Below, one piece after another: positions 16,255 through 42,888 of a stretch of DNA of 64,000 nucleotides; positions within the stretch are counted from its first letter, which is position 1; every line of letters starts with the position of its first letter. The translations under genes and the position numbers were made by a program. The stretch covers positions 13,349 to 77,348 of the forward strand of contig VXRE01000049.1 in the NCBI GenBank assembly GCA_009838635.1, read 5' to 3'. Under the pieces are notes generated by a model that ran no database searches, was not told where the DNA came from, and worked only from the letters and a program-made list of their open reading frames with translations. Source of the DNA: Acidimicrobiia bacterium (GTDB taxonomy: Bacteria; Actinomycetota; Acidimicrobiia; Spongiisociales; Spongiisociaceae).

Positions 16255-16257
16255 GCC

Positions 16258-19391: not shown

Positions 19392-19402
19392 AGGTATACA
19401 AT
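19392..19402. promoter_or_regulatory. GGTATACAAT element (GTATACA core) about 55 bp upstream of the hyuA start and downstream of the FCD-GntR gene. I interpret this as a putative GntR-type operator.
   Basis: Read directly. FadR/FCD-type GntR operators commonly contain GT-N(x)-AC palindromes. Confidence 0.35.
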
Positions 19403-19455
19403 CCGGGTATGGACCAGACCACACCAGTGAAGCCGCGCGTCCGGCGAGGGACGCC

Positions 19456-23393: not shown

Positions 23394-23398
23394 CCAGC

Positions 23399-25365: not shown

Positions 25366-26381
25366 TCCCCGACCTACCGGCCGATCGCCTCACCGACTAC
25401 CTGCGCCGGATGCTGGTCATCCGCCGCTTCGAGGAGGGGCTGATAGAGCTGGCCGGCGAGTACGCCGTCGGCCACTTCCACGTGTATATCGGCCAGGAGG
25501 CCACCGGCGTGCCGGCCCTGGCGCAGCTCGAGCCGGGAGACGTGGGCTTCACCACCCACCGGAACCACGGCCACCTGCTGGCCAGGGGCACCGACCCGGC
25601 CGCCATGTTCGCCGAGATCCTCGGCAAGGAGACGGGGACCAACCGCGGCAAGGGGGGCACCCTCCACATCGCCTCGCTCGAGAACGGCTTCCCGACCACG
25701 TCGGCGGCCACCGGGGGCTGCACACCCCTCGCGACCGGGGCCGCGTTCGCCTTCTCCCGGCTCGGGAGGGATCGGGTGTCCGTATGCCTGTTCGGTGACG
25801 GAGCCCTGGAGGAGGGCACCTTCCACGAGTCGATCAACATCGCCGCCCTAGAGAGCCTCCCCGTCATCTACCTGTGCGAGAACAACAGCCTGGAGGCGCT
25901 CGGTCAGAAGGCCAACGAGTACCCGTCCTCCACGATGGCGGCGGCGCCGCTCACCGACCTGGCCGCCGCCTTCAAGGTGCCCACGATCACGGTGGACGGC
26001 ACCGACACCGGAGCGGTCCACGATGCGATGGCGACCGCCGTCGGGCGAGCCCGCGGCGGCGGTGGCCCCACCTTCATCGAAGCGCTCACGGTCCGGTGGC
26101 CGGGAAGCCGGCCGATCTGGCCACAACTCCTCACCGGTCCGACCGATCTCTCCTACGCGTGGGACCCTTCGGCGATCCCGGCCGACTACGCGGTCTGGCA
26201 CGCCGAGCAGGATGGGCTGCTCCGCTACGTCCGGGAACTGCTCTCGGCCGGAGTGCTGACCCCCGACGAGGCGTTGGCAATGGACGAGCAGGTCAAGGAC
26301 CGGATCGAGCGCGGCGTCCGGTTCGCCCTCGACAGTCCTTACCCTCCCGTGGCCAGCGCCCTCGAGTCCGTCTACGCCTAG
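25362..26381 (+). CDS. E1 component alpha subunit (copy 2)
   Basis: A GTG start overlaps the beta-1 stop. The TPP motif LFGDGALEEGTFHESINIAALESLPVIYLCENN is present. Confidence 0.8.
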   Translation: MIPDLPADRLTDYLRRMLVIRRFEEGLIELAGEYAVGHFHVYIGQEATGVPALAQLEPGDVGFTTHRNHGHLLARGTDPAAMFAEILGKETGTNRGKGGTLHIASLENGFPTTSAATGGCTPLATGAAFAFSRLGRDRVSVCLFGDGALEEGTFHESINIAALESLPVIYLCENNSLEALGQKANEYPSSTMAAAPLTDLAAAFKVPTITVDGTDTGAVHDAMATAVGRARGGGGPTFIEALTVRWPGSRPIWPQLLTGPTDLSYAWDPSAIPADYAVWHAEQDGLLRYVRELLSAGVLTPDEALAMDEQVKDRIERGVRFALDSPYPPVASALESVYA

Positions 26382-26547
26382 TGGTCTGTCTGTGGAATGG
26401 CGGTGTGGTATGGCGTCGGCAGCGGTGTTCCTCGCAAGGCCCGCTGACGAAGGCGTACCCGCAGTGGTACGTTGAGGAAGCGGAACGCAGCGACGGGACA
26501 CCGATGACCGCCAGAACACACCAAGCTGTTTCGCAGATAGACCACTA
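26379..26547. repeat. 170-bp non-coding insert between the E1 alpha-2 and beta-2 genes, bounded by 14-bp inverted repeats (TAGTGGTCTGTCTG ... CAGATAGACCACTA). This may be a MITE-like or structured-RNA element.
   Basis: Read directly. The left repeat begins at the alpha-2 stop codon (26379). The right repeat ends 10 nt before the beta-2 ATG, and 13 of 14 positions are complementary. Confidence 0.5.
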
Positions 26548-26557
26548 GAGGGTGGAT

Positions 26558-27544
26558 ATGCGCGAGATGCTCTATGCCGAGGCGCTGGTCGAGTCGCTCC
26601 GCCACCAGATGGCGACCGACGAGCGGGTCCACCTCATGGGCCTCTACTTCCTGGGCCTCACCAAGCACCGGGCGATCATGGCCCGCCTGCATGCCGACTA
26701 CCCGGGCCGCGTCTACCACCCCCCGATCGCCGAGGTCGGGTACGTGGGCGTGGCCATAGGAGCAGCGCTGGCCGGGCTGAGGCCCATCGTGGACATGGCC
26801 ACCGCCAGCTTCATGTTCCAGGCCTTCCCCCAGATCGTCAACGAGGCGGCCAACATCCACTACATGTCGGGCGGCGCCACCAAGGTGCCGATGGTCTTCC
26901 ACTTCAACCACGGCATCCGCGGAGGAGGGGCGGCCCAACACTCGCACAGCCCGCAGGCGATGCTCTGGAACACCCCTGGGCTCGAAATCATGGCGCCCTC
27001 CACGCCTCGGGACGTGATGGGGCTGGTCAACACTGCCGCTGCGTCCGACAACCCGACCGCCTGGGTGGATCACGTCCGCCTGTTCGACACCAGTGGCCCG
27101 GTACCCGACGACAAGGATTTCTCCATTCCCTTCGGCGTCGCCGACGTCAAGCGGCAGGGCGGAGACGTCACCGTGTTCGCCTCGTCCTGGATGGTCGTGC
27201 GGGCCCTCGAGGCCGCCGAAACCCTGAGCGCGGAAGGGATCCAGGCGGAGGTAATCGATCCCCGCACGCTTTCGCCCCTGGACGAGGAGACGATCCTTGA
27301 ATCGGTGGCCAAGACCGGGCGCCTGGTCGTGGTGGACGAGTGCCACCGCCGGTGCGGCGTGGCCGCCGAGATCACCGCCGTGGTCACTGAACGTGCATTC
27401 GGCGACCTGGTGGCCGCTCCGATCCGGGTTACCACGGCCGACGTGCCCATCCCGTTCAGCCCGCCCCTCGAGCAGCACGTCGAGCCGACTACCGACAAGA
27501 TCGTCGCGGCCGTCCGGGCGGTAACGGACAGCGCCGCCGGGTAG
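26558..27544 (+). CDS. E1 component beta subunit (copy 2)
   Basis: It has E1-beta features (HLMGLYF.., PIVDMATASFMFQAF, C-terminal transketolase-C-like region). The start is at the ATG 5 nt after AGAGGG; an alternative GTG lies at 26552. Confidence 0.8.
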   Translation: MREMLYAEALVESLRHQMATDERVHLMGLYFLGLTKHRAIMARLHADYPGRVYHPPIAEVGYVGVAIGAALAGLRPIVDMATASFMFQAFPQIVNEAANIHYMSGGATKVPMVFHFNHGIRGGGAAQHSHSPQAMLWNTPGLEIMAPSTPRDVMGLVNTAAASDNPTAWVDHVRLFDTSGPVPDDKDFSIPFGVADVKRQGGDVTVFASSWMVVRALEAAETLSAEGIQAEVIDPRTLSPLDEETILESVAKTGRLVVVDECHRRCGVAAEITAVVTERAFGDLVAAPIRVTTADVPIPFSPPLEQHVEPTTDKIVAAVRAVTDSAAG

Positions 27545-27549
27545 ACAGA

Positions 27550-29802
27550 ATGGAACTGGGCCAGGCGCCGGTTCGGCTGGAGGACCTCCCGCTGATCACC
27601 GGCTCCGGCCGGTTTGTCGGCGACATGGTGGACGTCGGCACCCTCCACTGTGCTTTCGTGCGCAGCCCGGTCGCCCACGGCAGGCTGTTGCCTCCGGACC
27701 TCGGCGGCGCCCGGAGCCTTCCAGGCGTCGTCGCCGTCTTCGGCGCCCACGACCTCGGATTGCCGGACATGCCTTCGTCGCCCCATCCGGGCGCACCTGA
27801 GGCCGCCGGCATGGGCCAGCCGCCCCTGGCCCGCGACCGGGTGCGTTACGTGGGAGAGCCGGTTGCAGTGGTCGTTGCCGAGACGGCTGTCCAGGCGGTG
27901 GACGCCGCCGGGTCGGTGTGGATCGAGGCCGAGGAACTCCCCGCCGTGGACACCGACTCCGCGCTGGCGGGCGAGGTGCTGCTGTTCCCGGATACAGGCT
28001 CGAACATCGCCCACCGCGCCACGATCATGACCGAGGGACCCCGACCCGCTGCGGAGATCGAGGCTTCCGCAGAGGTGGACATTCCCAGGGTCTCGCCGGT
28101 GACCATCGAGCCCCTGGCCATACTCGCCCGTCCGGCGGGCTCCGGCCTCGAGGTCTGGTGTGGCCATCAGGCGCCCGCAGCGCTGTCGAGACAACTCGGA
28201 GCGATGCTGGGCATCGACCCGTCCAGCATCAGAGCGAGGGTTCCGGATGTGGGCGGGGCCTTCGGGACCAAGGGCCAGTTCTATCCGGAGTATCCCGTCG
28301 TGGCGGCCATAGCCCGGCGTCTGGCTAGGCCGACCGTCTGGCTCCAGAGCCGGACCGAGCAGCTCATGTGCGGTACCCATGGCCGAGCCCAGCACATCAC
28401 GATGCGGGTCGGCGGCGACCGTGACGGACGGATCCGCTACCTCGCCGCCGAGATAGTGGGCGATTCCGGGGCTTACCCGTGCGCCGGAGCGCGGGTTCCC
28501 TTCTACACCCTGCCCGTGATCCAAGGTCCTTACGACATCGAGCATCTCGAGGCCACCGCAACCGCGGTCGTCACCAGCAGGGCCCCGGTCGGCCCGTACC
28601 GTGGCGCCGGCAGGCCCGAGGCGGCCATCGCCATCGAACGGGCGGTGGATGCGTTCGCGCAGTGTGCCGGGTTGCTTCCCGAGGAGGTGCGGAGGCGCAA
28701 CTTCGTCGATCCGGCCGACTTCCCCTTCAGGAGCCACACCGGCTTCATCTACGACTCGGGTGATTACGTGGCCGCCCTGGAGCTGGCCATCGACACGGCC
28801 GACATGGCTCGGTGGCGGCAACTCCGGGCCGAACGGCGGGCCGGCGGGGGCGATCCCATCGGTATCGGTATCGGCTCGTTCATCGAGCGCGCCGGGGGCT
28901 CGGCCGGTTCGGGCGAGTACGGCAGGGTCGAGATCAGCCAGGACGGCGGTGTGGTCGTGAGGACCGGATCGACGCCCGCCGGCCAGGGACACCGTACGGT
29001 CTGGTCCCAGATAGCGGCAGGGGTGTTCTCCGTGCCCACCGAGGAGGTGACGGTCTACGCGGGGGACACGGGCGAGGTGGCAGGCGGTGTCGGAAGCTTC
29101 GCGAGCCGCTCCACCCAGCTCGGAGGCTCGGCGATCCTTCGAACGGCCATCGAGGTTCGCGCCCGCGCCCGGGCGGTCGCCGCCGGCATGCTCGAGGCGT
29201 CAGAGGCGGATCTCGTCCTGGTGGACGGGGGCTTCGGCGTCGCCGGCTCGCCGGGCACTACCGTCACGCTCGCCGAGGTTGCCGCCGAGGCGGCAGCCAC
29301 CGGCGTCGAGCTGGCGGCCGAGGAGATGTACACCGGCGCCACGCTGACCTTCCCCTTCGGAACCTACGTGGCAGTCGTCGAGGTGGAACGCGAGACGGGC
29401 GAGGTGGGCCTGCTGTCACTCGTAGCCGTCGATGACTGCGGCAACGTGCTGAATCCGATGATCGTCGAGGGCCAGGTACACGGCTCGGTCATGCAGGGCA
29501 TCGGGGAGGCGCTCCTGGAGGAGGTCGTGTACAACGCCGACGGGCAGCCCATCAACGCCAACCTGGCCGGTTACCTCGTGCCCACGGCCACCCAGCCCCT
29601 CCCGCTGATCGCGCGGCGGACCACCACTCCGGCCCCCGGCAATCCTCTCGGCGTCAAGGGAACCGGCGAGGCCGGTTGCATCGGGGCACCTCCGGCGATC
29701 CTGAACGCCGCGCACGACGCCCTGCGCGACGACGGGGTGACATCCTTGGACTTCCCACTCACACCCGCCCGAGTGTGGGAGGCCATCCGCTCGGCCCGAT
29801 AG
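27550..29802 (+). CDS. Xanthine-dehydrogenase/aldehyde-oxidase family molybdopterin-binding large subunit (CoxL-like, form-II type)
   Basis: It is 750 aa, with the form-II-type loop PYRGAGRPE and a molybdopterin-binding fold. No cognate small or medium subunit gene is adjacent. Confidence 0.8.
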   Translation: MELGQAPVRLEDLPLITGSGRFVGDMVDVGTLHCAFVRSPVAHGRLLPPDLGGARSLPGVVAVFGAHDLGLPDMPSSPHPGAPEAAGMGQPPLARDRVRYVGEPVAVVVAETAVQAVDAAGSVWIEAEELPAVDTDSALAGEVLLFPDTGSNIAHRATIMTEGPRPAAEIEASAEVDIPRVSPVTIEPLAILARPAGSGLEVWCGHQAPAALSRQLGAMLGIDPSSIRARVPDVGGAFGTKGQFYPEYPVVAAIARRLARPTVWLQSRTEQLMCGTHGRAQHITMRVGGDRDGRIRYLAAEIVGDSGAYPCAGARVPFYTLPVIQGPYDIEHLEATATAVVTSRAPVGPYRGAGRPEAAIAIERAVDAFAQCAGLLPEEVRRRNFVDPADFPFRSHTGFIYDSGDYVAALELAIDTADMARWRQLRAERRAGGGDPIGIGIGSFIERAGGSAGSGEYGRVEISQDGGVVVRTGSTPAGQGHRTVWSQIAAGVFSVPTEEVTVYAGDTGEVAGGVGSFASRSTQLGGSAILRTAIEVRARARAVAAGMLEASEADLVLVDGGFGVAGSPGTTVTLAEVAAEAAATGVELAAEEMYTGATLTFPFGTYVAVVEVERETGEVGLLSLVAVDDCGNVLNPMIVEGQVHGSVMQGIGEALLEEVVYNADGQPINANLAGYLVPTATQPLPLIARRTTTPAPGNPLGVKGTGEAGCIGAPPAILNAAHDALRDDGVTSLDFPLTPARVWEAIRSAR

Positions 29803-29812: not shown

Positions 29813-30877
29813 CTACCAGTCTCCTTCCGCGACACTCAGGACGATCTTGCCGACGTTGCGCCTCGAGCCCAGGTCGGCGTAGGCCGCGCGAATGTCGCCG
29901 AGGGGTCGGACCGAGTCGATCGCCGGATCGATGCGGCCTGCTCCGGCCAGGTCGATGCACCGCCGCATCCCCCGCCGCGTGGATCCCGCGCTTCCGTATA
30001 TCGCCACCCGCGACCGGAACAGCCAGTTGTTGTTGAGTTGGACCATCGGGCCGGCGTGCGACCCGCAGACCACCACCCGGGCCCGGTTCCGGAGTGTCTT
30101 GAGCACCTCTTTCCACACGTCCGGGTTGCTGGCAGGATCGAGGAAGAGGGTGACGCCCTCGGGAACGATGCCGCGGATCCGGCCTGCGAAGTCGGGCTCG
30201 GCGGTGTAGTCGACGGTGGCGTCCGCACCGGCTACGGCCGCCCGCGCCGCCCGATCAGGCGAGCCGGCCGCACCGATGACGAACGCACCGGCCAGCTTGG
30301 CGAGCTGGACCGCGGCGGAACCGATGGCGCCGGATGCGCCCGCCACCATGACCACATCGTCCCTGGTCAGTCCTACCCGGGTGAACATCTGCTCCGCGAC
30401 GGGAAACGAGTGGGCCAGTGCGGTCGCCTTCGCGTGGCTCAGACCGGATGAGACGGGGAACACGCTGCGCTCGGGCACCGTCACGTACTCCGCATGTCCA
30501 CCCCACCGGTGGACGCCCACGTTATGGAGGGAGGGACAGGAGTCGTCCTCGCCTCGAGCGCAGAATTCGCAGGCATCGCAAGCGATCGGAGGTTTGACGA
30601 CCACCCGCCGGCCGATCGCGAGGGAAGTGACCCGGGAACCGTGCCCGGCAACCACCCCCGATGGATCTATCCCCATCACGTGCGGAAACGAGAGGTTCGC
30701 CATATGGGCCCGGCCCGACATGGTGAAGAGATCCTGGTGGTTCACGGCCACCGTCCGGACCCGGATCAGCACCTCGTCCTCCGCCGGTTCCGGTACCGGC
30801 AGGTTGGTGTCCATGATGCAGTGGGGCCCTCCGAGCTCCGCCAGCGCCATGGCTCGCATGGTCTTCGGGAGGGTCAC
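29813..30877 (-). CDS. Zinc-binding alcohol dehydrogenase / MDR-family oxidoreductase
   Basis: A GroES-like N-terminus with catalytic-zinc Cys and structural-zinc ligands (CDACEFCARGEDDSC) and a Rossmann motif VAGASGAIGS are present. Confidence 0.75.
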   Translation of the reverse strand: MTLPKTMRAMALAELGGPHCIMDTNLPVPEPAEDEVLIRVRTVAVNHQDLFTMSGRAHMANLSFPHVMGIDPSGVVAGHGSRVTSLAIGRRVVVKPPIACDACEFCARGEDDSCPSLHNVGVHRWGGHAEYVTVPERSVFPVSSGLSHAKATALAHSFPVAEQMFTRVGLTRDDVVMVAGASGAIGSAAVQLAKLAGAFVIGAAGSPDRAARAAVAGADATVDYTAEPDFAGRIRGIVPEGVTLFLDPASNPDVWKEVLKTLRNRARVVVCGSHAGPMVQLNNNWLFRSRVAIYGSAGSTRRGMRRCIDLAGAGRIDPAIDSVRPLGDIRAAYADLGSRRNVGKIVLSVAEGDW

Positions 30878-30997
30878 GCGATTCCCCGCGAGAGTTGGGT
30901 CATCGGCCTCGAATCCGGTCGTAGCAGCGGTTCACGATTCTTGACGATACCGTGGGGAGATCTGCCTTCGGAGCCGGCCACTTCCCGGGGCAGGCGG

Positions 30998-32425
30998 TCA
31001 TGCCCGGTCCCCCTCGGGCTTCGTGATGAGAGTGCGCGCCGTCATGATGACCCCTGCCAGGGCCACGGCAGCCAGCCCGGCTTCGCCCACGGGGAATCCC
31101 GAGCCCAGGAGCGGGACGGACAGGTCACGCTGGATGATCCCGGTTGTCACCGCCCCGCCCGATGATCCGCCGAGGAAGAAGCCGAGGTAGAAGATCCCGA
31201 TGGCGATCGACTGGGATGGACCGTCGAAGCGCTTCGTCACCGCATCGACCAGCGGAGGGGTCAACAGTCCGAACCCGATGCCGAGCGGTATCACCAGTAT
31301 CGCCACCAAGCCGGGGCCGCGGTCGACTCCCAGGGCGGCCAGCAGCCCGGTTCCCGCCAGAAGGAACAGCAGCGAGACCAGCGTCGTGCCCATGTAGCCC
31401 AGCCTCCGTGAGGCAAGCCTGGTAGTCGTGGACGCCAGGGAGATCGACGCCGCGGCGGGGACGATGACCAGGCCGATACCCACGGCATCTATCTCGTGGG
31501 CCCGGGACAGGGCCGATGGCAGGGCGATGATGGTACCGAGATAGGCGGCGCTTCCCACGAAGGCGGCGATCGCCAGAGGGAGGAACTTCCGGTCAGACAG
31601 CACCGACATGGGTACGAACGGGGCCGGATGGCGCTTCGACCTGGAAGCGGTGAGCAAGCCGCCCAGAACGGCGACTATCACGGCGCCCCCGGTCAGGAGC
31701 GTGGCGCCGTCTAACGGGAACCGGTTGACGGCAAAGACCAAACCGCCGATCAGGAGCAGGACCGAGCCCGCACCCGCGTAGTCCAGGTGGTGGTCGGGGT
31801 CACCGCGCTGGGGCAGGTCGTACCAGATGAACGCCGCGACGGGTGAGGCCAGCATCCCGACCCCCACCGCGGCCCGCCAGCTGATGAGGTCCACCAGCAG
31901 ACCGCCGATCATCGGTCCGAGGGCCTGAGCGACTCCCACCACCGCGGTGATGATCCCGTAGGCGAACTGGCGCCGCTCCGGGGGGTACCTGGTTGCGAGG
32001 ATGGCGACCGACAGGGTCGGGATAGCCCCTGAACCCGCCCCCTGGATCACCCGCGCCGCGATCACCACCTGCAGGGTCGGGGCCACGACCGCCACCAGGG
32101 AGCCGAACGCAAGGAGCAGGATCCCGAACGAGAGGGTTCTTCCCAGCCCGAACCGGGCCGCCAGCCGCCCGTACAGAGCGGTGGCTATGGCGAACATCGC
32201 CGAGTAACCGAAGACCACCCACCCCACGTCCGCCGGCCCGGCCGCGAACGTCTGGGCGATGGCGGGTTGGGAGACGGCCGAGGCCGTCGTATTGGCCACG
32301 GTGAGGAACACGGCCGCCCCGAGCATGGTCAGGATGGCAGTCGCCGACAGCCGGCCCCTAACGGTATCCACGCTACATGTCCGTTCCGGCCCGCTCAAAC
32401 AGATCCGGCTCGAGCGGACCCGCAT
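30998..32425 (-). CDS. MFS transporter (DHA2/EmrB-like, about 14 TM)
   Basis: It is hydrophobic throughout and has the MFS motif GRLAARFGLGRT. The true start is probably downstream of the listed one (MLGAAVFL...). Confidence 0.7.
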   Translation of the reverse strand: MRVRSSRICLSGPERTCSVDTVRGRLSATAILTMLGAAVFLTVANTTASAVSQPAIAQTFAAGPADVGWVVFGYSAMFAIATALYGRLAARFGLGRTLSFGILLLAFGSLVAVVAPTLQVVIAARVIQGAGSGAIPTLSVAILATRYPPERRQFAYGIITAVVGVAQALGPMIGGLLVDLISWRAAVGVGMLASPVAAFIWYDLPQRGDPDHHLDYAGAGSVLLLIGGLVFAVNRFPLDGATLLTGGAVIVAVLGGLLTASRSKRHPAPFVPMSVLSDRKFLPLAIAAFVGSAAYLGTIIALPSALSRAHEIDAVGIGLVIVPAAASISLASTTTRLASRRLGYMGTTLVSLLFLLAGTGLLAALGVDRGPGLVAILVIPLGIGFGLLTPPLVDAVTKRFDGPSQSIAIGIFYLGFFLGGSSGGAVTTGIIQRDLSVPLLGSGFPVGEAGLAAVALAGVIMTARTLITKPEGDRA

Positions 32426-32505
32426 CCACTCCCGTGTCAGCGACCGAGCGAGAGAGCCGATGGGTATCCGGGCTTCCAGTGGCCGCTATCGGTGCCTCCG
32501 CTAGT

Positions 32506-32529
32506 CTGTATACAGAGCACTGTATACAG
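32506..32529. promoter_or_regulatory. Two tandem copies of the perfect 10-bp palindrome CTGTATACAG separated by 4 bp, in the divergent promoter region between the MFS gene and the ABC ATPase gene. I interpret this as a putative operator.
   Basis: Read directly: CTGTATACAG AGCA CTGTATACAG at 32506-32529. Related GTATACA-core palindromes occur at 19392-19402, 42879-42888 and 57560-57569. Confidence 0.5.
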
Positions 32530-32595
32530 TGGCTGTCGGGTGTGTGCTGACCGCACGACCGCCTTCGCTCCATTGGTTCGAGTAGGAGACCGCCG

Positions 32596-33414
32596 GTGGC
32601 TAGACCGAAGATCGAGATAGCACACGTCGACAAGTTCTATCGAAAGACCGGTACGCCCCCGAAGCGCCTGAGCCGGCGGGGACGGACGCACGGGACGGTT
32701 CAGGCCCTGCGCGACGCCAGCCTGACCGTGGCCGAGGGCGAGTTCGTCAGCCTCATCGGTCCGAGCGGATGCGGCAAGACCACCCTGCTAAAGGTCTTGG
32801 ACGGCTTGGTCCCTTACGATTCCGGTGAGGTCAGAGTCTCGGGCAAGCCCGTTACCGGGCCCGGCCGGGATCGCGCCTTCGTGTTCCAGCAGTTCGGGCT
32901 CTTTCCGTGGCGAACCGTGACGGGGAACGTGACGCTCCCCTTGGAGGCTGCCGGGAAGTCAAGGGCGGAGCGCGAGGACATTGCTTGGAAGTACATAAGG
33001 ATGGTGGGACTGGAGGGCTTCGCCAACCACCATCCCCATGAACTGTCCGGCGGTATGCAGCAGCGGGTGGGAATCGCTCGCGCCCTGGCGGTAGATCCCG
33101 AGATACTGCTCATGGACGAGCCGTTCGGCGCTCTCGACGCGCAGACCCGCGAGTTGATGCAGATAGAACTGCTCGGGATCTGGGAGAAGACCCGCAAGAC
33201 GGTGGTGTTCGTCACCCATAGCGTGGACGAGGCGATCTTCCTGTCCGGGCGGATAGCAGTCATGTCGGCGCACCCGGGCACGGTGAGCGAGGTCATAGAC
33301 GTCCCCTTCCCGTACCCGAGGACCGAGGGGGACCTGAAGCGGGATCCCTTGTTCGCCGACATGCGGCACGACATCTGGAACAAGCTACTGCCGCACAAGA
33401 CCGCCACCGTCTGA
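32596..33414 (+). CDS. ABC transporter ATP-binding protein, NitT/TauT (sulfonate/nitrate/taurine) family
   Basis: Walker [10 protein letters not shown], the signature [15 protein letters not shown], and Walker [12 protein letters not shown] are present. Length is 272 aa. Confidence 0.85.
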
Positions 33415-33457
33415 CGGGATCGCTCCGGCGAGCGGATACGGCGACATCCCCTTCCGA

Positions 33458-33832
33458 CTAGGCCTCGCCCTTTGCGGCTAGCTGTCCCTCCGGCTGGAGG
33501 GGCGGGACCCAGTTCAACACCTTCTCCAGGTTGACGAGATAGTCCGCGAAGGCCCGGCGGCCCGAAGGCGTGGCCGTCACCCATGTGGAGGGCTTCTCGT
33601 TCCGGAACTCCTTGGTGATCGCGACGTAACCGGTGTCCCGGAGCTTGCGCAGGTGGATGGTGAGGTTCCCACCGGTCACATCCAGAGTTCTCTGGATGAA
33701 CGTGTAGGCCACCCGACCGTTGCCCGGCTGGGAGACCAGCAGGGTCATTATCCGCAAACGGACGGGCTGATGGATGATCTGGTCGAGGTCGACGGACTCG
33801 CTGGTCACCGGATCCCGATCCTGCGCAACCAC
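33458..33832 (-). CDS. Small winged-helix transcriptional regulator (ArsR/HTH_45-like)
   Basis: It is 124 aa. Its predicted wHTH is IHQPVRLRIMTLL...GNLTIHLRKLRDTGYV. It overlaps the 3' end of the upstream membrane-protein gene by 28 nt. Confidence 0.5.
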   Translation of the reverse strand: MVAQDRDPVTSESVDLDQIIHQPVRLRIMTLLVSQPGNGRVAYTFIQRTLDVTGGNLTIHLRKLRDTGYVAITKEFRNEKPSTWVTATPSGRRAFADYLVNLEKVLNWVPPLQPEGQLAAKGEA

Positions 33833-34449
33833 ACCGCTCCCCCGCCCACTACCGCCAGGGTCGCCACCGCCGAGACCACCAGTGCGGCGTCACCCGCCAG
33901 GAAGCTGGGTACGTAGTAGGCGGCGGCTATCCCGGCGCCGACGGCTGCCAGCGCCGGCCGGGTCATCATGCCGTAGAGAATGTAGCCCAGGGCCACTATC
34001 CCGATGGCCACGTGGGGGATTCGAGGGCCGAGCTCGTCATTCCACATCCCCGCGGCTGCCGGAATGAACCAGGCCGCCACCGCCACCGCCATCCAGAAGC
34101 CGAAGACCCGGAGACCGACCGCCCGGCTGGCCTCCCTCGACACGTTCCTGCTCCCTGCCCGGTGCCCGATGATGGCGCTCCCGACGATCCCGGCCACGAT
34201 CAGGACGCCGAACAGCGGCACCACCACCCACGGTCTCTGCTCCACCAGATCGGCGCCCCCGGTCTGGAGCCAGTATGAGAAGAGATACGCCACCGCGGTG
34301 ATACCTCCCCACAGCAGCAGGATGGGGGAGGTCCCGGCGAGGTACATCGAACTCCTCGCCCTGTCCATGGTGGTGTGGATGGATCCCCAACTCTCTTGAG
34401 GGGTGAGGGCGGACCCTCCACTTTCCGAGCCTGACATCGAGACCTCCAT
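33805..34449 (-). CDS. Hypothetical integral membrane protein (about 6 TM)
   Basis: It has coding-like composition and several hydrophobic helices. It is co-transcribed with the wHTH regulator and preceded by the TTTGTAATACAAA palindrome. Confidence 0.45.
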   Translation of the reverse strand: MEVSMSGSESGGSALTPQESWGSIHTTMDRARSSMYLAGTSPILLLWGGITAVAYLFSYWLQTGGADLVEQRPWVVVPLFGVLIVAGIVGSAIIGHRAGSRNVSREASRAVGLRVFGFWMAVAVAAWFIPAAAGMWNDELGPRIPHVAIGIVALGYILYGMMTRPALAAVGAGIAAAYYVPSFLAGDAALVVSAVATLAVVGGGAVWLRRIGIR

Positions 34450-34453
34450 CTAG

Positions 34454-34466
34454 TTTGTAATACAAA
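34454..34466. promoter_or_regulatory. 13-bp palindrome TTTGTAATACAAA immediately upstream of the membrane-protein/wHTH-regulator operon. I interpret this as a putative autoregulatory operator.
   Basis: Read directly at 34454-34466, within a 118-bp low-GC intergenic region. Confidence 0.4.
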
Positions 34467-34567
34467 GTAGTTTATCCGGAAGGGAACTCTGGTGTCAAGT
34501 TGTCTCCAGAAGGGAGGGGCGCATCGAGCACGACCGGAAGCCGGCGGATCCGGTTGAGGTGGACGAC

Positions 34568-35531
34568 CTATTCGGAGGTGTCCGCGGCGCCTCCTGTGAC
34601 GCCCTGACGGCGCGGCGGCGTGACCTCGAAGGTGAAGAGGTCGGACCGGCTGTAGTGACCGGCCACGTCCAGGTCGAACTTGCCCCTGATCGTGTCGGTC
34701 AGGTCGATCTCGGCGGTCAGGATCGCCTCGCTCCCGTAGTGGGGCCCGGCGAGGACCTCACCGAACGGATCGACGATGCAACTCCCACCCGGGGTGATCA
34801 CACCGTCGGGCGCTTCGCCGAATACGGACCGGTAGTCGGCGGGATAGTCCGCACGGGTCGCGTACTGGTTGGCCGAGAGCACGTAGCACCGGCCCTCCAC
34901 CGCGATGTGCCGCATGGAAGCGGTCCAACTGTCCCTGGCGTCGGCGGTCGGAGCACACCACACCTGGATGTCCTGCCGGTAGAGGGAGTAACGGAGCAGC
35001 GGCATGTAGTTCTCCCAGCAGACGGCGGCGCCCAGGTTGCCGTGCCGGGTCGGGTGGACCTGGAGCGTCGATCCGTCTCCGAACCCCCAGATCAGCCGTT
35101 CGGAACCGGTCGGCATCACCTTGCGGTGCTTGGCGTACATGCCCTCCACCGGCGCGAAGAACAGCACCGAGCAGTACAGGGTGCTCCCGCCGCGCTCGAT
35201 CACCCCGATCACGATGTCCATCGCCAGATCGGATGACAATTCGACAAGCCGGTCGGTGACCGGACCGGGCACGTCGATCGCCGACTGCCAGTAGCGGAGG
35301 AACATATCCCGGCCCGCCTCGCTCCGCGACCCGACCACCGCCCCGAAGTCCAGGCCCCGCGGGTACGCGGAGAAGAAGGCCTCGGGGAACACCGCCAAGT
35401 CCGCGCCCTCCGACCGGGTGCGGGTAGCCAGATCGGCTGTCTTCCGATAGCGTGGCCTCCGGATCGAATCCAACCGGCGCCGCCTGCACCACCGCGGCGA
35501 CGAACTTGGATCCAGCCGGGCGTTCAGCCAT
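34568..35531 (-). pseudogene. Nitrilase/cyanide-hydratase family carbon-nitrogen hydrolase, interrupted by a +1/-1 frameshift near codon 30
   Basis: The ATG at 35531 gives MAERPAGSKFVAAVVQAAPVGFDPEATLSEDS. After 35440-35450 the homology continues in another frame: RKTADLATRTRSEGADLAVFPEAFF...CWENYMPLL, carrying the Glu, Lys and Cys of the catalytic triad. This could be a sequencing error or a genuine pseudogene. Confidence 0.55.
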
Positions 35532-35624
35532 CGGAGCAATCGTTATGATCGGCGACCGACATTTCCGAGAGGCTAATACCGGCCGGCCGCAGGCTCGATC
35601 GGAGAGAACTGCCAGGAGGTTCCC

Positions 35625-36635
35625 GTGGGCACCCGAAGCGTCAGCCGGACCAGATCCTTCCGGGACGAGGACCGCTGGGTAGAGGTCGAGGGCGCCACCC
35701 TGGCCGGGACCCTGACCCTGCCCGCCGGCGAAGGTCCTTGGCCGGTGACCCTCCTGCTTGGAGGGACGTTCTCGGATCTCAGGGATGCTGATGTGGATCC
35801 GCGGCTGTGGCCCGGAGTCCCCAAGCGCCACATGTACGCCATCCTCGCCCGCGGTCTGGCGGGGGCGGGCATCGCCTCCTTCCGCTTCGACCGGAGGGGC
35901 GCCGGCGAGAGCAAGGGCGAGCTGGGAGTCCGGCGGGGCCAGGAGGTTGCCGACGCCGGGGCCGTGTGGCGATGGGTCCGGTCCCTGCCGGAGTGCAACG
36001 GCAGGGCGGCCATGCTGGGCCACAGCGCCGGCGCGTACGTGCTCTGCCGGGTGGCGCTCGAAGAGGGGCAGCCCGACGCGGCGGTGTTGCAGGGCGCCCT
36101 CTACCGGTCGATCGCGGCGTTGCTCGAGTACAACTACCGCCTGATTCGTGATTACATGCGCCTCGGCGAGTCCGAGGTGGCGTGGGTGAAGGAGCACTCC
36201 CCCAAGGCCTACGAGGATGCGATGATGATGCCAGCCATCGTCACCGCGATCGAGAACCGCGAGCCGCCGCTGGCGACGGCGGAGGTCGACGGTGTGACCA
36301 GGACCCGCGACCTGTCGAGCCTGCGGTACGACCTGGACCTTCCTCCCGAGGACCAGTTCCGCCACCTGGCCGCCCCCGCCCTCGTGCTGCACGGCGCCGA
36401 GGACCTGAACGTACCCACAGAAGACGCCTTCGAGACGGCGCGAGCCCTATGGGCCGCCGGGAACAGGGATGTCGAACTGCGGGTGATCCCGGGCGCCAAC
36501 CACTCCTTCCAGCTGGACGCCGATGACTACGCCACCCGGGTGCGGGAGAAGATCACGATGAAGAACTTCGGCCGCCCTTTCCACCAGCAATATCCCGGCG
36601 TGGTGATCGACTACCTGGCAAGAAAGCTCCTCTGA
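35625..36635 (+). CDS. Alpha/beta-fold hydrolase
   Basis: The nucleophile elbow is LGHSAGAY. A GTG start is preceded by AGGAGG, and length is 336 aa. Confidence 0.65.
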   Translation: MGTRSVSRTRSFRDEDRWVEVEGATLAGTLTLPAGEGPWPVTLLLGGTFSDLRDADVDPRLWPGVPKRHMYAILARGLAGAGIASFRFDRRGAGESKGELGVRRGQEVADAGAVWRWVRSLPECNGRAAMLGHSAGAYVLCRVALEEGQPDAAVLQGALYRSIAALLEYNYRLIRDYMRLGESEVAWVKEHSPKAYEDAMMMPAIVTAIENREPPLATAEVDGVTRTRDLSSLRYDLDLPPEDQFRHLAAPALVLHGAEDLNVPTEDAFETARALWAAGNRDVELRVIPGANHSFQLDADDYATRVREKITMKNFGRPFHQQYPGVVIDYLARKLL

Positions 36636-36701
36636 CCCTCACCGTTGATCATCAGACGAAGCCGGCCGTCAACCCCTGACTCTCCCCACGACGGGCAGAA
36701 C

Positions 36702-36842: not shown

Positions 36843-37418
36843 TCAGCCGGGCTGCCGGACTCCGTGGGGGACCGTGTTCCGGATGACGGTTCCGTTGTGG
36901 GTGACGACCGAGTAGACCGGCACCGCCCTCCGGGAGAAGGCGCCGAGTGGGCAGCGGGCGTCGCCCCAGTCGATCATGGCCAGTACGGAGTCGGCCGCCG
37001 ACGGGCTGTCCACGTGGACATCGAACACCAGCCACTGGATGTGGACCGGTTTGTCCTCGAAGCCGTGCTCCCCGCGCAGGTCCAGGTGGGTGGTGATGTT
37101 CATTCGGAGCCCCTCCACCTCGCAACCCGCGAACGGGGCGCCCTTGGCGTACCAGCCGAGCATGCAGAAGGCGATCCCGCTGAGGAAGTACCGGATCGGG
37201 CTCGGGCCCCGCTCGTGTCCGCCCCGCTCGATGGCCTCGTCCCCGAAGAAGGTGAACTCGCGGTCATACTGGACGAACGAGGACCGGACGCTCACGTCTT
37301 CGATGGTCTCTGCCGACACGTAGGGGTGCACCAGCCCGGCGGCGTGGTTGCCGCCCAGTATCTCCACCAAGCCCAGGTAGTTGGACTCCAGCTTGCCGTG
37401 ATCGACGATCCCCATCAT
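36843..37418 (-). CDS. OsmC/Ohr-family-like protein
   Basis: GPSPIRYFLSGIAFCMLGW and a later ..DARCPLG.. resemble the two conserved Cys regions of OsmC-like proteins. Length is 191 aa. Confidence 0.45.
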   Translation of the reverse strand: MMGIVDHGKLESNYLGLVEILGGNHAAGLVHPYVSAETIEDVSVRSSFVQYDREFTFFGDEAIERGGHERGPSPIRYFLSGIAFCMLGWYAKGAPFAGCEVEGLRMNITTHLDLRGEHGFEDKPVHIQWLVFDVHVDSPSAADSVLAMIDWGDARCPLGAFSRRAVPVYSVVTHNGTVIRNTVPHGVRQPG

Positions 37419-38464
37419 TTCCTCCTGTCTGCTTGCGGCACGCCCGACCGGGCGATCTCCTCCCGCACGATCGGTAGTACGGACCCGCTTATCTCCTCCA
37501 GGGTCTCCTCGAAGCGATTGAACTGGTTACGCACGTCGAACGTGAAGTGGTCGAACCCTCGGTTGTAGTACTCAAGGACGCCGTCCGCCACATCGCGGGC
37601 GTCGCCCACCACCACCACGCCCCGGATGTCCTCGAGCGTCCGGAAGGCGCCCCCGGGCGGGGTCACCCAGTTCCTCTTGCCGTCTCGCGACATCCGCTCC
37701 ACGCTCACCCGGCTGCGGGCCCGGTCCCGGTCACCGTCGAGAATCGTGCGGGGTGTGGCTGAGAGGAAGAGACGGTCGATGCTGCCCAGCAACTCCCGCA
37801 TGTAGGAGAGCCGGGCGTCGACGGTGGTGAGCGGGACGGTGCCTGCCAGCCAGCCGTCTGCATGTCGGGCGGCTATCCGGGCTGCCCGCCGGGAAGGACC
37901 ACCGTAGAGGATGGGTAGCGGATGCTCGAGTTTCGGTTCGAGGGAGGCGTGGTGGACCCGGAAGATCTCCCCGTCGAAGGTAACGCCGTTGTCGACCCAC
38001 AGCCGGCGCACGATCTCGATCATCTCCAGGACCGCCTGGTGTTTGCGGTCCGGGTCGATCCCGGCTGCCCTCAACTCACCGCCGTGACCGGCCCCGAAGC
38101 CGGCGATGACGCGCCCGCCGGTGAGGTAGGAGAGGGTGAGGTACTGCTGGGCGACCCTGATCGGGTGGCGCACCGGGATCATCACCCCCGTCCCGATGAC
38201 AAGCCGTTCCACCAGCGTTCCCAGCCCGACCAGGGTGGTGAACGGCTCCAGGAAGGTCATGTCGGTGTGTTCCTCGTGGCTGTGCGGGTGCCAGAGGAGG
38301 TGATCGCGGGCCCACACCGCGTCGAAGCCCAGGTCCTCTATGAGCTTGATTCCCTCGATGAGGCGGGTCCGGGAAGCGTGGGGACCGAAGTGGGGCAGCA
38401 ACACCCCGAAAGTCATCCCCGTCCGGGGCCTCCTAAGGGGATGGCCGTCCAGGTCCCGGCTCAT
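37415..38464 (-). CDS. LLM-class (luciferase-like) flavin/F420-dependent oxidoreductase (copy 1)
   Basis: MTFGVLLPHFGPHAS...GFDAVWARDH is the typical LLM N-terminus. The probable real start is the internal Met at about 38416. Confidence 0.7.
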   Translation of the reverse strand: MSRDLDGHPLRRPRTGMTFGVLLPHFGPHASRTRLIEGIKLIEDLGFDAVWARDHLLWHPHSHEEHTDMTFLEPFTTLVGLGTLVERLVIGTGVMIPVRHPIRVAQQYLTLSYLTGGRVIAGFGAGHGGELRAAGIDPDRKHQAVLEMIEIVRRLWVDNGVTFDGEIFRVHHASLEPKLEHPLPILYGGPSRRAARIAARHADGWLAGTVPLTTVDARLSYMRELLGSIDRLFLSATPRTILDGDRDRARSRVSVERMSRDGKRNWVTPPGGAFRTLEDIRGVVVVGDARDVADGVLEYYNRGFDHFTFDVRNQFNRFEETLEEISGSVLPIVREEIARSGVPQADRRK

Positions 38465-38575
38465 ACCAGCTCCGGCGGTGGCGTGGGGATGAGCGTCCGG
38501 GTGCCGGGCCGCTCTAGAACGGTCCGGGAGCTTCCGTGTCCGATGGTGCTCACCGCCGCTTCGAACCCTCGGAGT

Positions 38576-39592
38576 TCAGAATGCCTTAGGTCGCCAGGAG
38601 GACAACCGGGACTCGACCGCCTTGGTGATGGTGATCATGATCCCTCCGATCACCATCAGTAGCAGGGCCATGGCGAACAGCCGGTCGGTGTGGTAGGCAG
38701 CCCGGGCGTCCCGGATCACGAAGCCCAGTCCGGGCACCCCGATCAGGAACTCGGCCACGATCACCGCGATCAGACCACGTTGCACGGCGATGCGGAGACC
38801 GGTGGCCAGGAACGGGACGGCGCCGGGCAGGAGGATCTTCAGGAACATGTGCCGGTCGCGTGCGACGAGCAGCCCCACCGTGCCGAACAGCAGTACCAAA
38901 CCCTGAATGAGGCTCAGCCATCCCGCAGCCGTACCCAGGAAGGTGACGACGAGGAGGACGGCCCCGACCCATTCCTCGACCACGCCCTTGCCCGACCTCA
39001 GGTTGAAGGCATAGGAGATCTCGTTGTACTCCTTCATCAACTCGTGCACCCCCGCCGCGGTGGAGAAGGCGATCAGGACCGAGCAGGCCACCACCACGCT
39101 GGCGATCACGAACCTGGAGAAGGGAATCTCGACCCCGGCCGCCAGGAAGTTGTCTGCGATGCCGAACCAGATGACCATGATCGGGACGAAGGCCACACGT
39201 GGGACCGAATAGACGGCTGCCAGGTAGGGATCGAGCGCCACCCGGAACACCCGGTACCGGCCGATCAGGAAACCAAGGGTCACCCCCACGATGAACGAGA
39301 GCACCATGCCGATCAGCAGGGCTCCCATGGACTTCATGAGCAGTACCGGGAAGCTCCCCTCGATGTAGGGAAGCACCTGCTCGGCGCCGAGGAGCCTCCA
39401 CAACTCGGCGAGCGTCAGGCTCGGCTGCGAGTACCACTCGGGCTTCCGGGCGCCGAACACCTCCCAGAGCCCCAGGAAGACCACGACTCCGGTCAGTTGA
39501 AGGATCCTCACCCGGCTGATCCGGAACGGGCTACGGGTCTCCCCGCCAGTCTGGACGGCGCCGTCTCCGCTGTCTGTCGAAGTCTCGGCCAT
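38576..39592 (-). CDS. ABC transporter permease, NitT/TauT family
   Basis: It has 6 TM helices and the EAA-like loop. The start is at MAETSTD, since the ORF-track upstream extension is out-of-frame read-through. Its ATG overlaps the stop of the upstream permease (ATGA). Confidence 0.8.
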   Translation of the reverse strand: MAETSTDSGDGAVQTGGETRSPFRISRVRILQLTGVVVFLGLWEVFGARKPEWYSQPSLTLAELWRLLGAEQVLPYIEGSFPVLLMKSMGALLIGMVLSFIVGVTLGFLIGRYRVFRVALDPYLAAVYSVPRVAFVPIMVIWFGIADNFLAAGVEIPFSRFVIASVVVACSVLIAFSTAAGVHELMKEYNEISYAFNLRSGKGVVEEWVGAVLLVVTFLGTAAGWLSLIQGLVLLFGTVGLLVARDRHMFLKILLPGAVPFLATGLRIAVQRGLIAVIVAEFLIGVPGLGFVIRDARAAYHTDRLFAMALLLMVIGGIMITITKAVESRLSSWRPKAF

Positions 39593-40437
39593 CACGTGGC
39601 CTCCATGGTGCTCCACGGGGTCACCCAACGCTCGAGCAGCCGCAGGCCGAGGTTGATCGACACTCCCACCGCCATGACGGTCAGCATGCCCGCGAAGGTC
39701 GTGTGCATCCGGTATTCGTTGGTCTGGTTGGCTATCAGCCCCCCTATCCCGTTGGCCTCGAGGAAGAAGCCGGCCAGCACCACGCCGACCATCCCGTGCA
39801 GGAGGCCCAGGCGGAGCCCGGTGATGATGTAGGGCGCGGTAGCCGGCGCGATGATCTTGGTGAGCATCATGCCCTCCGGGATCGAGTATGACCTGGCCAC
39901 GTCCACGTACTCGGCGTTCGTCACCTTGATGCCGTCGCGAACGGTGAAGAAGACCTCGAAGAAGCTGAAGAGGATCACTATCAGCACCTTGGCGTTGAAC
40001 TGGAAGCCCAGCCAGAGGGCGATGATCGGCAGCAGGGCGATCTTGGGCGTCATGAACACACCCACGAACACCGGCTCGACGGTGTTGTCGATCGAGCGGT
40101 ACCGTCCCATGACGAAGCCCAGAATGATTCCGGCCACGGCCGAAATCGCCAGGGCGGTGAACATGATGGCCAGGTCGGACCGCCACGCCTTCCACAGGTC
40201 GCCGCTGACGGTCATCTCCCATAGCGCATCCCAGGTCCTGGTCACCGAGGCGAAGGTGACGGTGCTGGTGCGCCTGCCGAAGACCTCCCAGCCGGTGAGG
40301 ATGACGGCGAGAGTCAGGATCCGGATCAGCCAACTCGATTGGAACACCGCCAGGAAGCGCAGCAGGGGGCGGCTCCACCCGGCAGCCAGGATCGCGGAAC
40401 CCTGCTCCCGGTGGGTCAGCGTGTCGACTGCGGCCAT
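39592..40437 (-). CDS. ABC transporter permease, NitT/TauT family (second permease)
   Basis: It is hydrophobic with 6 TM. The start is at MAAVDTLTHREQ, with GGGGAG 9 nt upstream. Confidence 0.8.
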   Translation of the reverse strand: MAAVDTLTHREQGSAILAAGWSRPLLRFLAVFQSSWLIRILTLAVILTGWEVFGRRTSTVTFASVTRTWDALWEMTVSGDLWKAWRSDLAIMFTALAISAVAGIILGFVMGRYRSIDNTVEPVFVGVFMTPKIALLPIIALWLGFQFNAKVLIVILFSFFEVFFTVRDGIKVTNAEYVDVARSYSIPEGMMLTKIIAPATAPYIITGLRLGLLHGMVGVVLAGFFLEANGIGGLIANQTNEYRMHTTFAGMLTVMAVGVSINLGLRLLERWVTPWSTMEAT

Positions 40438-40636
40438 ATCCAATAGCTCCCCATCTGATGACCCCGGGAGTGGCACCGGCCAGCCCGGCAACCGGTAACA
40501 GGCTGCCTTCAGGACGGCTCGAACCCTTACGGAAACCTTAGTCCCACGCTCCGCAGCCGTATGGACACCTTGTGGGCCTGCCGCATCCCGGAGGAAACCG
40601 GTAGGCCCACAGGTTCATTTCGTCGTGTCGTCTGCT

Positions 40637-42778: not shown

Positions 42779-42878
42779 CTGAACTTCCTCCCGTCGCTAG
42801 CTGGTGGGCAAGGAGCCCGCCACCGGTCGCGCGGTGCTACCTCCCGTCTCCGGCAGGTAGCCAATCGCCTGCCGCATA

Positions 42879-42888
42879 ATGTATACAG
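42879..42888. promoter_or_regulatory. ATGTATACAG palindrome-core upstream of the SBP-permease operon. This is a putative operator, related to CTGTATACAG at 32506.
   Basis: Read directly, about 100 bp upstream of the SBP start codon on the minus strand. Confidence 0.4.

Follow-up and report, generated by a model that had tools for sequence, protein, structure and literature searches.

Recurrent GTATAC-core palindromes as probable operators of an FCD-type GntR regulator in a sponge-associated Acidimicrobiia bacterium

A stretch of 64,000 nucleotides from the contig VXRE01000049.1 of an Acidimicrobiia bacterium (assembly GCA_009838635.1; hereafter the window, whose positions are used throughout) contains a perfect 10-bp palindrome, CTGTATACAG, which is repeated in tandem between the divergent genes of a major facilitator superfamily (MFS) transporter and of an ATP-binding cassette (ABC) ATPase and recurs, in variants, ahead of several other putative catabolic operons. 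In our opinion, these palindromes are operators of a repressor of the FCD (VanR-type) GntR family, most probably of the product of the gene at 18609-19313, and a probability of about 0.7 may be assigned to this reading of the sequence data. Such an autoregulated repressor would most likely control about eight transcription units of an island of genes for the breakdown of nitrogen heterocycles. The evidence consists of the sequence of the sites, their enrichment, conservation and co-occurrence with the regulator, and the fold and family of the regulator itself. An autoregulated FCD-GntR repressor is considered the best reading because the sites form conserved blocks, because regulator, site and target genes are linked across phyla, and because there is a precedent in the repressor Atu1419 of Agrobacterium fabrum.

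Palindromic sites in the window and in related genomes

The two tandem copies, the putative operators P1 (32506-32515) and P2 (32520-32529), are separated by the 4-bp spacer AGCA and lie 14 bp apart from centre to centre; together they make up the element tCTGTATACAGagcaCTGTATACAGt (positions 32500-32535 read gctagtCTGTATACAGagcaCTGTATACAGtggctg). The exact sequence confirms this arrangement, which had been described in an earlier note made from the sequence alone. Both copies are situated in a spacer of about 170 bp between the start of the MFS gene (32425 or 32377, minus strand) and the GTG codon of the ABC ATPase gene at 32596, which is preceded by AGGAG.

A search for CTGTATACAG with at most one mismatch gave exactly four matches in 64 kb (32506, 32520, and the one-mismatch copies ATGTATACAG at 42879 and CTGTATACCG at 57560) against 0.20 expected, and four matches were reached in none of 100 dinucleotide-preserving shuffles. 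The hexamer GTATAC is found seven times against 2.2 expected, six of these being intergenic in a window that is about 92% coding; the 8-bp core TGTATACA with at most one mismatch also occurs seven times, six of them between genes. A position weight matrix (PWM) was derived from 31 sites of other genomes only, all with an invariant GTATAC core, and placed all seven sites of the window within its 13 best hits, the first hit in a coding region ranking 14th.

The sites in the window thus comprise P1, P2, 42879, 19393, 57560, 44096 and 18590. The putative operator of the operon of a substrate-binding protein (SBP), two permeases, a luciferase-like monooxygenase (LLM) and OsmC occupies 42874-42888 on the minus strand (GCATAATGTATACAG, minus strand CTGTATACATTATGC; PWM score 19.2), its 10-mer at 42879 being located 100 nt upstream of ATG 42778. 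The site upstream of hyuA, GCATAAGGTATACAAT at 19387-19402, is the top PWM hit (23.6); its 10-mer GGTATACAAT (19393-19402) has a GTATAC core and lies 53 nt upstream of ATG 19456. The putative operator CTGTATACCGTATATCC at 57560-57576 (plus strand, PWM score 17.5) is found 63 nt ahead of an operon of alpha/beta-hydrolase, amidohydrolase, LLM and MFS_3 genes. Between the divergent LLM and CN-hydrolase genes there is a perfect 12-bp palindrome, ATCGTATACGAT, at 44096-44107, to which the GTATAC core at 44099 belongs. The search with TGTATACA also revealed CTGCATACAA (18590-18599), part of the putative autoregulation site CTGCATACAATATCCAG at 18590-18606 (plus strand), which is situated 9 nt before ATG 18609 of the GntR gene, within a 94-bp spacer common to this gene and the divergent amidohydrolase operon. 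Particularly, the G...C of G(T/C)ATAC, that is, G at position 3 and C at position 8 of the dyad, is kept in all seven sites, which lie 6-100 nt upstream of start codons and in several of which a TAnnnT hexamer overlaps the core. Of the variant sites named in the earlier note, those at 42879 and 57560 were found as given, and that of hyuA is real, although it begins at 19393 and not at 19392. The set listed there was too small, since two more promoters (44096-44107 and 18590) have to be added; the observation of the palindromes holds, and the four or five sites noted before become seven.

The best matches of the proteins of the window belong to uncultured sponge-associated Acidimicrobiia (Ca. 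Spongiisociaceae). Related loci of these bacteria, designated by L numbers, were gathered via the ATPase (L001-L007, L165-L167) and via the GntR protein (L008-L011); in L012, a metagenome-assembled genome annotated as Acidimicrobiia bacterium, the GntR protein is 97% identical. All seven sites appear as conserved blocks inside otherwise diverged spacers of these relatives. P1 is kept in L001-L007, L145 and L166, and the longest invariant block of the spacer between the MFS and ABC genes is CCTCCGCTA..TGTATAC.GAGCACTGTATACA (alignment A2, five lineages), against a mean column identity of 66% elsewhere in this spacer. The distance between P1 and P2 and the sequence AGCA are constant in all orthologues that have both palindromes. 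P1 is degenerate in L004 (ATGTATACGG), and the sister clade of L165 and L167 has one palindrome only, with TGTATAG ahead of it.

Other promoters show the same picture. The SBP-operon site CTGTATACATTATGCG and the 12-bp ATCGTATACGAT are invariant in L001, L002, L005 and L007, and GTATAC precedes CN-hydrolase homologues in L025 and L036 as well. In L008-L019, the block GCATAAnGTATACAATC is kept upstream of hyuA, where n varies between G, T and C, and the block CTG(C/T)ATACAATAT is kept upstream of gntR; the gntR promoters of close relatives carry the GCATAC variant, and in L008 the gntR site is a 7-3-7 palindrome, CTGCATAcaaTATGCAG. The 57560 site recurs as ctGTATACcgtatatga in L018 and is also found ahead of homologues in L023, L027 and L028. 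The gene calls of the databases put 21 of the 28 GTATAC hexamers of seven related loci in intergenic DNA, which makes up 9.3% of the bases there; the direction is clear, although orthology and AT-rich spacers inflate the nominal binomial P (1e-16). An earlier crude coding mask based on G+C content at third codon positions (GC3) over-called non-coding DNA (17-43%) and was replaced by these gene calls and a fixed-window test; with the mask, the comparison of GTATAC with 23 other AT-rich palindromic hexamers gave no clear contrast.

Several observations concern the same spacer in its own right. The flank GTGCCTCCGCTA at 32492-32503, adjoining P1, is invariant in alignment A2, being kept as strictly as the palindromes in spacers that have diverged. 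A dyad partner, a start of an open reading frame (ORF) after its GGAGG (minus strand) and an Rfam match are all lacking; a longer MFS frame or a leader peptide beginning past this conserved GGAGG is ruled out by stop codons and the lack of conserved starts. The LexA SOS box (CTGT-N8-ACAG) was rejected as an identity of the palindrome, as its arms are 2 bp apart here (CTGT-AT-ACAG) and the targets are catabolic rather than DNA-repair genes. A full-text literature search for CTGTATACAG returned primers and unrelated matches only.

The FCD-GntR protein and its orthologues

Three regulator genes are present in the window: those of the FCD-GntR protein (18609-19313), of a MocR protein (8128-9603) and of an HTH_34 protein (33458-33832). 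The first, the proposed repressor, is the only FCD-GntR encoded there. It is a protein of 234 aa encoded on the plus strand, with a GntR winged helix-turn-helix (wHTH) domain (PF00392, E=2.3e-16) and an FCD domain (PF07729, E=2.1e-15). In its AlphaFold model (pLDDT 84.7), the wHTH at residues 29-91 consists of three helices and a two-strand wing and is followed by six C-terminal helices, H96-H227; six helices in the FCD domain are characteristic of the VanR type and seven of the FadR type. The best Foldseek matches of the model are McbR, PmiR, TM0439, AlkR (VanR) and Atu1419 (VanR), and the match to the FadR fold is weaker (TM score about 0.46). By its domains and fold, the product of 18609-19313 belongs to the VanR-type FCD regulators of the GntR family. 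The recognition helix QLGVSRIPLRDALRRL does not vary among 26 aligned orthologues, whose overall identity goes down to 46%, so this subfamily should share one DNA specificity.

The operator of Atu1419, a VanR-type FCD-GntR repressor, is the 10-bp palindrome ATGTATACAT. Crystals of the protein with this 10-mer were obtained; the guanine at position 3 of the palindrome is essential and is read by Arg45, whereas Arg49 in helix 3 makes a backbone contact (PMC7797058; PDB 6z74, 6za3). Sites of Atu1419 overlap -10 boxes, two palindromes are found in one divergent spacer, and the gene of the regulator itself is controlled (PMC7797058). Among characterised systems it is the nearest to that of the window: the 8-bp core TGTATACA is identical, the 42879 site matches ATGTATACAT at 9 of 10 positions, both regulons comprise several sites, of which one lies on the promoter of the regulator, and two palindromes share one divergent spacer. 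Both proteins combine a wHTH with an FCD domain of six helices and have Arg where the guanine is read, and the protein of the window matches the Atu1419 chain (6z74) with E of about 1e-8. Arg65 and Arg69, invariant in the 26 orthologues, align to Arg45 and Arg49 of Atu1419, on the assumption of an ungapped match of equal length (query 9-90, 6z74 chain 16-97); the equivalents of Glu34 and Thr46 are Gln and Ile. As the G...C of G(T/C)ATAC is constant while the flanks vary, the pattern of conservation fits the chemistry of Atu1419.

At the same time, the two proteins are only about 23-24% identical, and the outer bases of the operator are C/G in the window against A/T in Atu1419. Palindromes are spaced by 14 bp in the window and by 190 bp, with a looped tetramer, in Atu1419. 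With about 8 units and about 30 genes, the proposed regulon exceeds that of Atu1419 (3 genes), and the enzymes are of the N-heterocycle/lactam type, whereas Atu1419 governs hydroxycinnamate degradation.

Another comparison can be made with DgoR of E. coli (GntR/FadR family), in which two closely spaced inverted repeats over the promoter are thought to take two homodimers and a pathway metabolite releases the repressor (PMC11705089). Two close inverted repeats in one promoter region, with half-sites of the TTGTA/TACAA kind, are common to DgoR and the window; the DgoR sites differ in an extra central base (TTGTAgTACAA), and DgoR serves a single operon of which its own gene is the first. GTATAC-core operators are also used by FadR-subfamily GntR proteins, namely GntR of B. 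subtilis (ATACTTGTATACAAGTAT) and UxuR/ExuR of E. coli (TTGGTATACCAA). These are substrate-induced repressors of catabolic operons with the same GT-AT-AC core dyad, which differ in serving sugar-acid metabolism, in other flanks and in C-terminal domains of the seven-helix FadR type or other subgroups.

The distribution of the regulator in distant genomes provides the second line of evidence. A scan of 185,579 species' genomes with the GntR alignment gave 41 loci, the distant ones belonging to Limnocylindrales, Dehalococcoidia, Anaerolineae, Lysobacterales and other Acidimicrobiia. In the region from -300 to +60 of the distant GntR orthologues, GTATAC ranks first among palindromic hexamers (13 of 20 loci, about 1 being expected from composition). 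According to tblastn with the proteins of the window, these orthologues adjoin homologues of hyuAB-E1, alpha/beta-hydrolase-LLM, alcohol dehydrogenase (ADH), MFS and ABC ATPase genes and, further, of OsmC, M20, CN-hydrolase-amidase and molybdenum-cofactor (MoCo) subunit genes, and GTATAC falls in the gaps ahead of these target-gene homologues.

The FCD-GntR protein, suggested as a candidate in the earlier note, gains support from the conserved site on its own promoter, from co-occurrence across phyla and from the precedent of Atu1419; in every related GntR locus it is accompanied by the same operons, both divergent and downstream. The MocR protein, the second candidate named there, is not supported: its divergent spacer (9604-9670) has no match to the motif with up to 2 mismatches, and in L009-L011, where motif and GntR persist, no MocR gene lies within 10 kb of the conserved GntR/hyuA sites. 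The HTH_34 gene, which is the nearest DNA-binding gene to the palindromes, was rejected, as it is absent from L001-L006 while the palindromes persist; together with a partner ORF of 214 aa it forms a variable insertion, in place of which L001-L006 carry RelB, MgtE_N-like or sugar-kinase genes.

Proposed mechanism and competing explanations

In the mechanism proposed, it is inferred that the protein binds and that it represses and does not activate, and so are the positions of the promoters, the stoichiometry and the effector. By analogy with Atu1419, one dimer would bind each nTGTATACAn 10-mer with one wHTH per half-site, and the invariant Arg65 would read the G of GTATAC on each strand. As the sites lie on or beside core promoters, the bound repressor would block RNA polymerase. 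Two dimers on P1 and P2, 14 bp apart, would shut both divergent promoters, those of the MFS and ABC ATPase genes, while single or composite sites (GTATAC-n-rTATrC) would control gntR itself, the hyuAB-E1-MoCo operon, the binding-protein/permease/LLM/OsmC operon, which completes the ABC transporter, the divergent pair of LLM and CN-hydrolase-amidase units and the alpha/beta-hydrolase-amidohydrolase-LLM-MFS operon. A small molecule bound to the FCD domain, presumably an intermediate of an N-heterocycle/lactam pathway, would release the repressor. The earlier note had proposed one regulon in which a shared operator links the split ABC transporter with the hyuAB operon and with the hydrolase/amidohydrolase cluster; this proposal, with the FCD-GntR protein as the regulator, is backed by three independent in-silico lines.

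The promoter geometry was judged from TAnnnT hexamers, which overlap the core in several sites (TACAGT, TACAAT, TACATT, TACGAT). In gntR, TACAAT is followed by 8 nt and ATG, and in the CN-hydrolase gene TACGAT is followed by 6 nt and GTG 44114; both arrangements are kept in relatives, and their spacing likely corresponds to leaderless mRNA. At 57560, a better -10 candidate, TATACT, is found about 15 bp downstream and is kept in L018, so the site there would cover the spacer or the -35 region.

Several points weigh against this picture. A scan of the P1/P2 spacer for the sigma-70 consensus found no promoter, as is usual for Actinomycetota, so the overlap with -10 boxes is judged from TAnnnT hexamers and leaderless geometry only. 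The canonical metal ligands of FCD domains (Asp/Asn-x3-His and two His) may be only partly present: by sequence alignment only, His194 and His216 are invariant, with the 22-residue spacing seen in Atu1419, and the first ligand pair is apparently replaced (Arg151...Tyr155). The flanks of the sites are heterogeneous (CTGTATACAG, ATCGTATACGAT, aGGTATACAa, CTGCATACAa). GTATAC cores also precede genes of unrelated FCD-GntR proteins (L038-L045, 30-37% identity), and in L166 a different FCD-GntR gene lies 1.1 kb from the ATPase gene. Finally, a model of simply one dimer per 10-mer is at odds with a second unit, which recurs at a distance of 7 bp.

This second unit, the weaker one, was revealed by the PWM; core and unit together take the form GTATAC-n-rTATrC, and 23 of 31 sites have T at +10. 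The unit explains the conserved GCATAA beside the hyuA and SBP cores and ATATCC beside the gntR core. It also puts P1, GAGCAC (which is invariant) and P2 into a 7-bp phase, at 0, 7 and 14 bp. A clash would be expected between two dimers of the Atu1419 kind spaced by 7 bp, so that register or oligomeric state may differ. It is conceivable, but in our estimate rather improbable, that the subfamily reads arrays of 7-bp phased GTATAC-like units, that is, GTATAC-n-rTATrC and the three positions of the 24-bp P1-GAGCAC-P2 element, together with the flank GTGCCTCCGCTA, via a higher-order assembly, and that it is a cross-phylum master switch of about 30 genes for N-heterocycle/lactam metabolism; in that case, the pathway would span sponge symbionts and marine or soil bacteria. 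NanR of E. coli is an FCD-GntR protein that reads several short phased GGTATA repeats with a higher-order assembly. It occurs among the fold matches of the GntR model (PDB 6wfq) and is, by analogy, a possible model for the 7-bp phased GTATAC-n-rTATrC units, although its repeats are direct GGTATA units and those of the window are self-complementary hexamers.

An unlikely explanation is that the sites are bound by a paralogous FCD-GntR protein or an unlinked factor encoded outside the window and not by the product of 18609-19313. GTATAC-core operators are used by many FCD-GntR proteins, therefore such a paralogue could be the true binder; apart from L038-L045, the core precedes unrelated FCD-GntR genes in L074, L090 and L122, the paralogue of L166 adjoins the ATPase gene, and the window represents 64 kb of a genome of about 4 Mb. 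However, neither the window nor L001-L007 encode the L166 paralogue (37% identical), upstream of which there is no GTATAC, whereas the subfamily of the 18609-19313 product travels with the same targets and sites across phyla and has a conserved site on its own promoter. A metagenome-wide scan for the tandem TGTATACAG-N4-CTGTATACA is uninformative about the regulon of the window. It gave 112 contigs (L053-L164), mostly of low GC and many of them apparently simple repeats: in the low-GC contigs the spacer (T/G/A)AT(A/C/T) makes 7-bp GTATAC repeats, most with TATA (TGTATACAGTATACTGTATACA) and several in multiple copies. Only L066 and L145 are orthologous, and only four contigs (L074, L090, L119, L122) set the tandem beside an FCD-GntR gene, which is unrelated to that of the window.

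It is quite unlikely that the classes of flanks (CTGTATACAG; ATCGTATACGAT; GCATAAnGTATAC) are read by different paralogues sharing the GTATAC core, with several small regulons as a result. The flanks do differ among promoters while being constant within each orthologous promoter, the base 5' of GTATAC being T, C or G. On the other hand, this base varies freely (G, T, C) among orthologues of the hyuA site while the core is fixed, and distant genomes have one GntR gene alongside homologues of all target classes, as the window has one FCD-GntR. In Atu1419, moreover, only the G of the core is essential in a base-specific manner (PMC7797058).

The motif could also be a promoter element, in which GTATACnnT supplies a TAnnnT -10 hexamer and symmetry gives bidirectional promoters. 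TAC(n)(n)T follows the core in most sites, the spacing in the gntR and CN-hydrolase genes suits leaderless transcription, and TACAGT reads outward from P2 on both strands in the window. Nevertheless, this explanation is very unlikely, as RNA polymerase requires no perfect dyads of 10-12 bp and no second, identical copy at a distance of 14 bp, no -10 hexamer extends into the palindromic flanks (CT..AG, ATC..GAT), the composite site of hyuA points away from its gene, and the motif tracks one family of regulators over Actinomycetota, Chloroflexota and Gammaproteobacteria, whose promoter consensuses differ. The promoter-element and operator readings are compatible, because a repressor site over the -10 box is a classical arrangement.

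A hairpin or cruciform of P1 and P2 in RNA or DNA, serving in stability, processing or attenuation, is highly improbable. P1 can pair with P2 to form a 10-bp stem with a 4-nt loop, and in L001 and L003 position 1 of P1 (G) and position 10 of P2 (C) are changed in a pair-preserving way, L002 being intermediate; this double change represents one event only, and the positions concerned are those under the weakest constraint. The spacer has no U-tract after the stem, prediction gave 0 terminator-like sites and Rfam searches no matches, while no such stem is open to the single copies at five other promoters and L165 and L167 keep one palindrome. Recurrence by chance, which the earlier note rightly took to be unlikely, is effectively refuted: although intergenic DNA of a genome with 67% GC is richer in A/T, which inflates AT-rich words, the observed count was not reached by any shuffle, conservation is exact by column in diverged spacers, and the motif recurs in other phyla.

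Putative transcription units and significance of the proposed regulon

Genes were called by GC3 and named with Pfam and NCBIfam. The identities given in the earlier note proved right by Pfam both for MFS_1, ABC_tran, the NMT1-type binding protein with BPD_transp_1, and Hydantoinase_A/B, and for the regulators, GntR with FCD and GntR with aminotransferase (MocR).

The putative unit at 19456-29802 (plus strand) includes hyuA-hyuB, two E1 alpha/beta pairs and a MoCo-binding (molybdopterin-binding) subunit (Pfam); its gene order beside the GntR gene is unchanged in L008-L019. The nearest match of HyuA (in 19456-23393) is the caprolactamase alpha subunit, below the cutoff. In the 5' leader of hyuA (19403-19455), ATGGACCAGACCA(C/G)ACCA is kept in the closest relatives only (L008, L012), and the ribosome-binding region CGCGTCCGGCGGGAGGTGA is conserved more widely. 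The MFS transporter and a Zn-dependent ADH form a putative unit at 29813-32425 (minus strand, Pfam); in L031-L036, their homologues flank the GntR orthologue, with GTATAC upstream. The stand-alone NitT/TauT-type ABC ATPase at 32596-33414 (plus strand, by Pfam and source names) is another putative unit, and GTATAC is found upstream of its homologues in L033, L036, L165 and L167. The slot 3' of the ATPase gene (33415-36700) is variable: in the window it holds HTH_34, the 214-aa ORF, which has no Pfam or NCBIfam match, CN-hydrolase and alpha/beta-hydrolase, whereas in L001-L007 and L166 it holds RelB, an MgtE_N-like ORF, a PfkB/LacI sugar cluster or the paralogous FCD-GntR.

A double NMT1 binding protein, two permeases, an LLM and OsmC constitute the putative unit at 36843-42778 (minus strand, Pfam/NCBIfam), which is syntenic in L001-L007 and holds the remaining parts of the ABC system, 3-10 kb from the ATPase. 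The binding protein (40637-42778) is a 713-aa fusion of two NMT1-type domains; those of L001, L003 and L007 have about 713-719 aa, and single-domain proteins of 377-382 aa occupy the same position in L002, L005 and L006. Divergent from the 44096 palindrome are the putative units of an LLM (43083-44051, minus strand, Pfam) and of CN-hydrolase, an AtzE-like amidase and an NMT1 binding protein (44114-47728, plus strand, Pfam/NCBIfam); GTG 44114 is a better start of CN-hydrolase than the first start of the ORF at 44078. The alpha/beta-hydrolase, amidohydrolase, LLM and MFS_3 genes form the putative unit at 57633-62243 (plus strand, Pfam), and the genes of this unit adjoin the GntR locus in L018, L023 and L026-L028. 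A possible further unit includes amidohydrolase, metallo-beta-lactamase, DUF2269 and rhodanese genes (14876-18514, minus strand, Pfam) and is divergent from GntR without exception in L008-L019; its amidohydrolase at 17123-18514 is of the TRZ/ATZ type.

The gene content hints at metabolism of the creatinine/hydantoin/lactam type. There are two DAO-GCV_T fusions, similar to sarcosine/dimethylglycine dehydrogenases, at 5513-7939 and 12128-14611, and in L165 a creatinase-like M24 gene (5182-6339) stands behind a GTATAC site. Two long overlapping ORFs on opposite strands at 54837-56531, both with Pfam hits, resolve to FAD_binding_5/CO_deh_flav_C (minus strand, about 54837-55700) and DoxX (plus strand, about 55800-56207) upstream of an M20 gene. 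The left end of the window (68-5080) is occupied by an unrelated signalling cluster of a response regulator-SpoIIE phosphatase, an anti-sigma-type HATPase_c_2 kinase, a Peripla_BP_6 binding protein and a HAMP histidine kinase.

Repression by an FCD-GntR protein similar to Atu1419 and DgoR is a known kind of switch, found here in a new organism, and represents no new regulatory principle; the large and phylogenetically widespread set of targets and the unexplained architecture of phased units are unusual. The Atu1419-type 10-bp operator would be extended to Actinomycetota, with an unusually tight tandem arrangement. Through one FCD-GntR protein and seven sites, a single catabolic unit would be formed by a split ABC transporter together with flavin monooxygenases, amidases, molybdenum hydroxylases and enzymes of the ATP-dependent hydantoinase/lactamase type. 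As this combination of regulator, operator and genes is found again in Chloroflexota and Gammaproteobacteria, the proposed regulon defines which poorly annotated genes share one pathway; the repressor could serve as a bait or a biosensor for finding its substrate. This yields a testable regulatory map of a catabolic pathway in an uncultured lineage of sponge symbionts, Ca. Spongiisociaceae.

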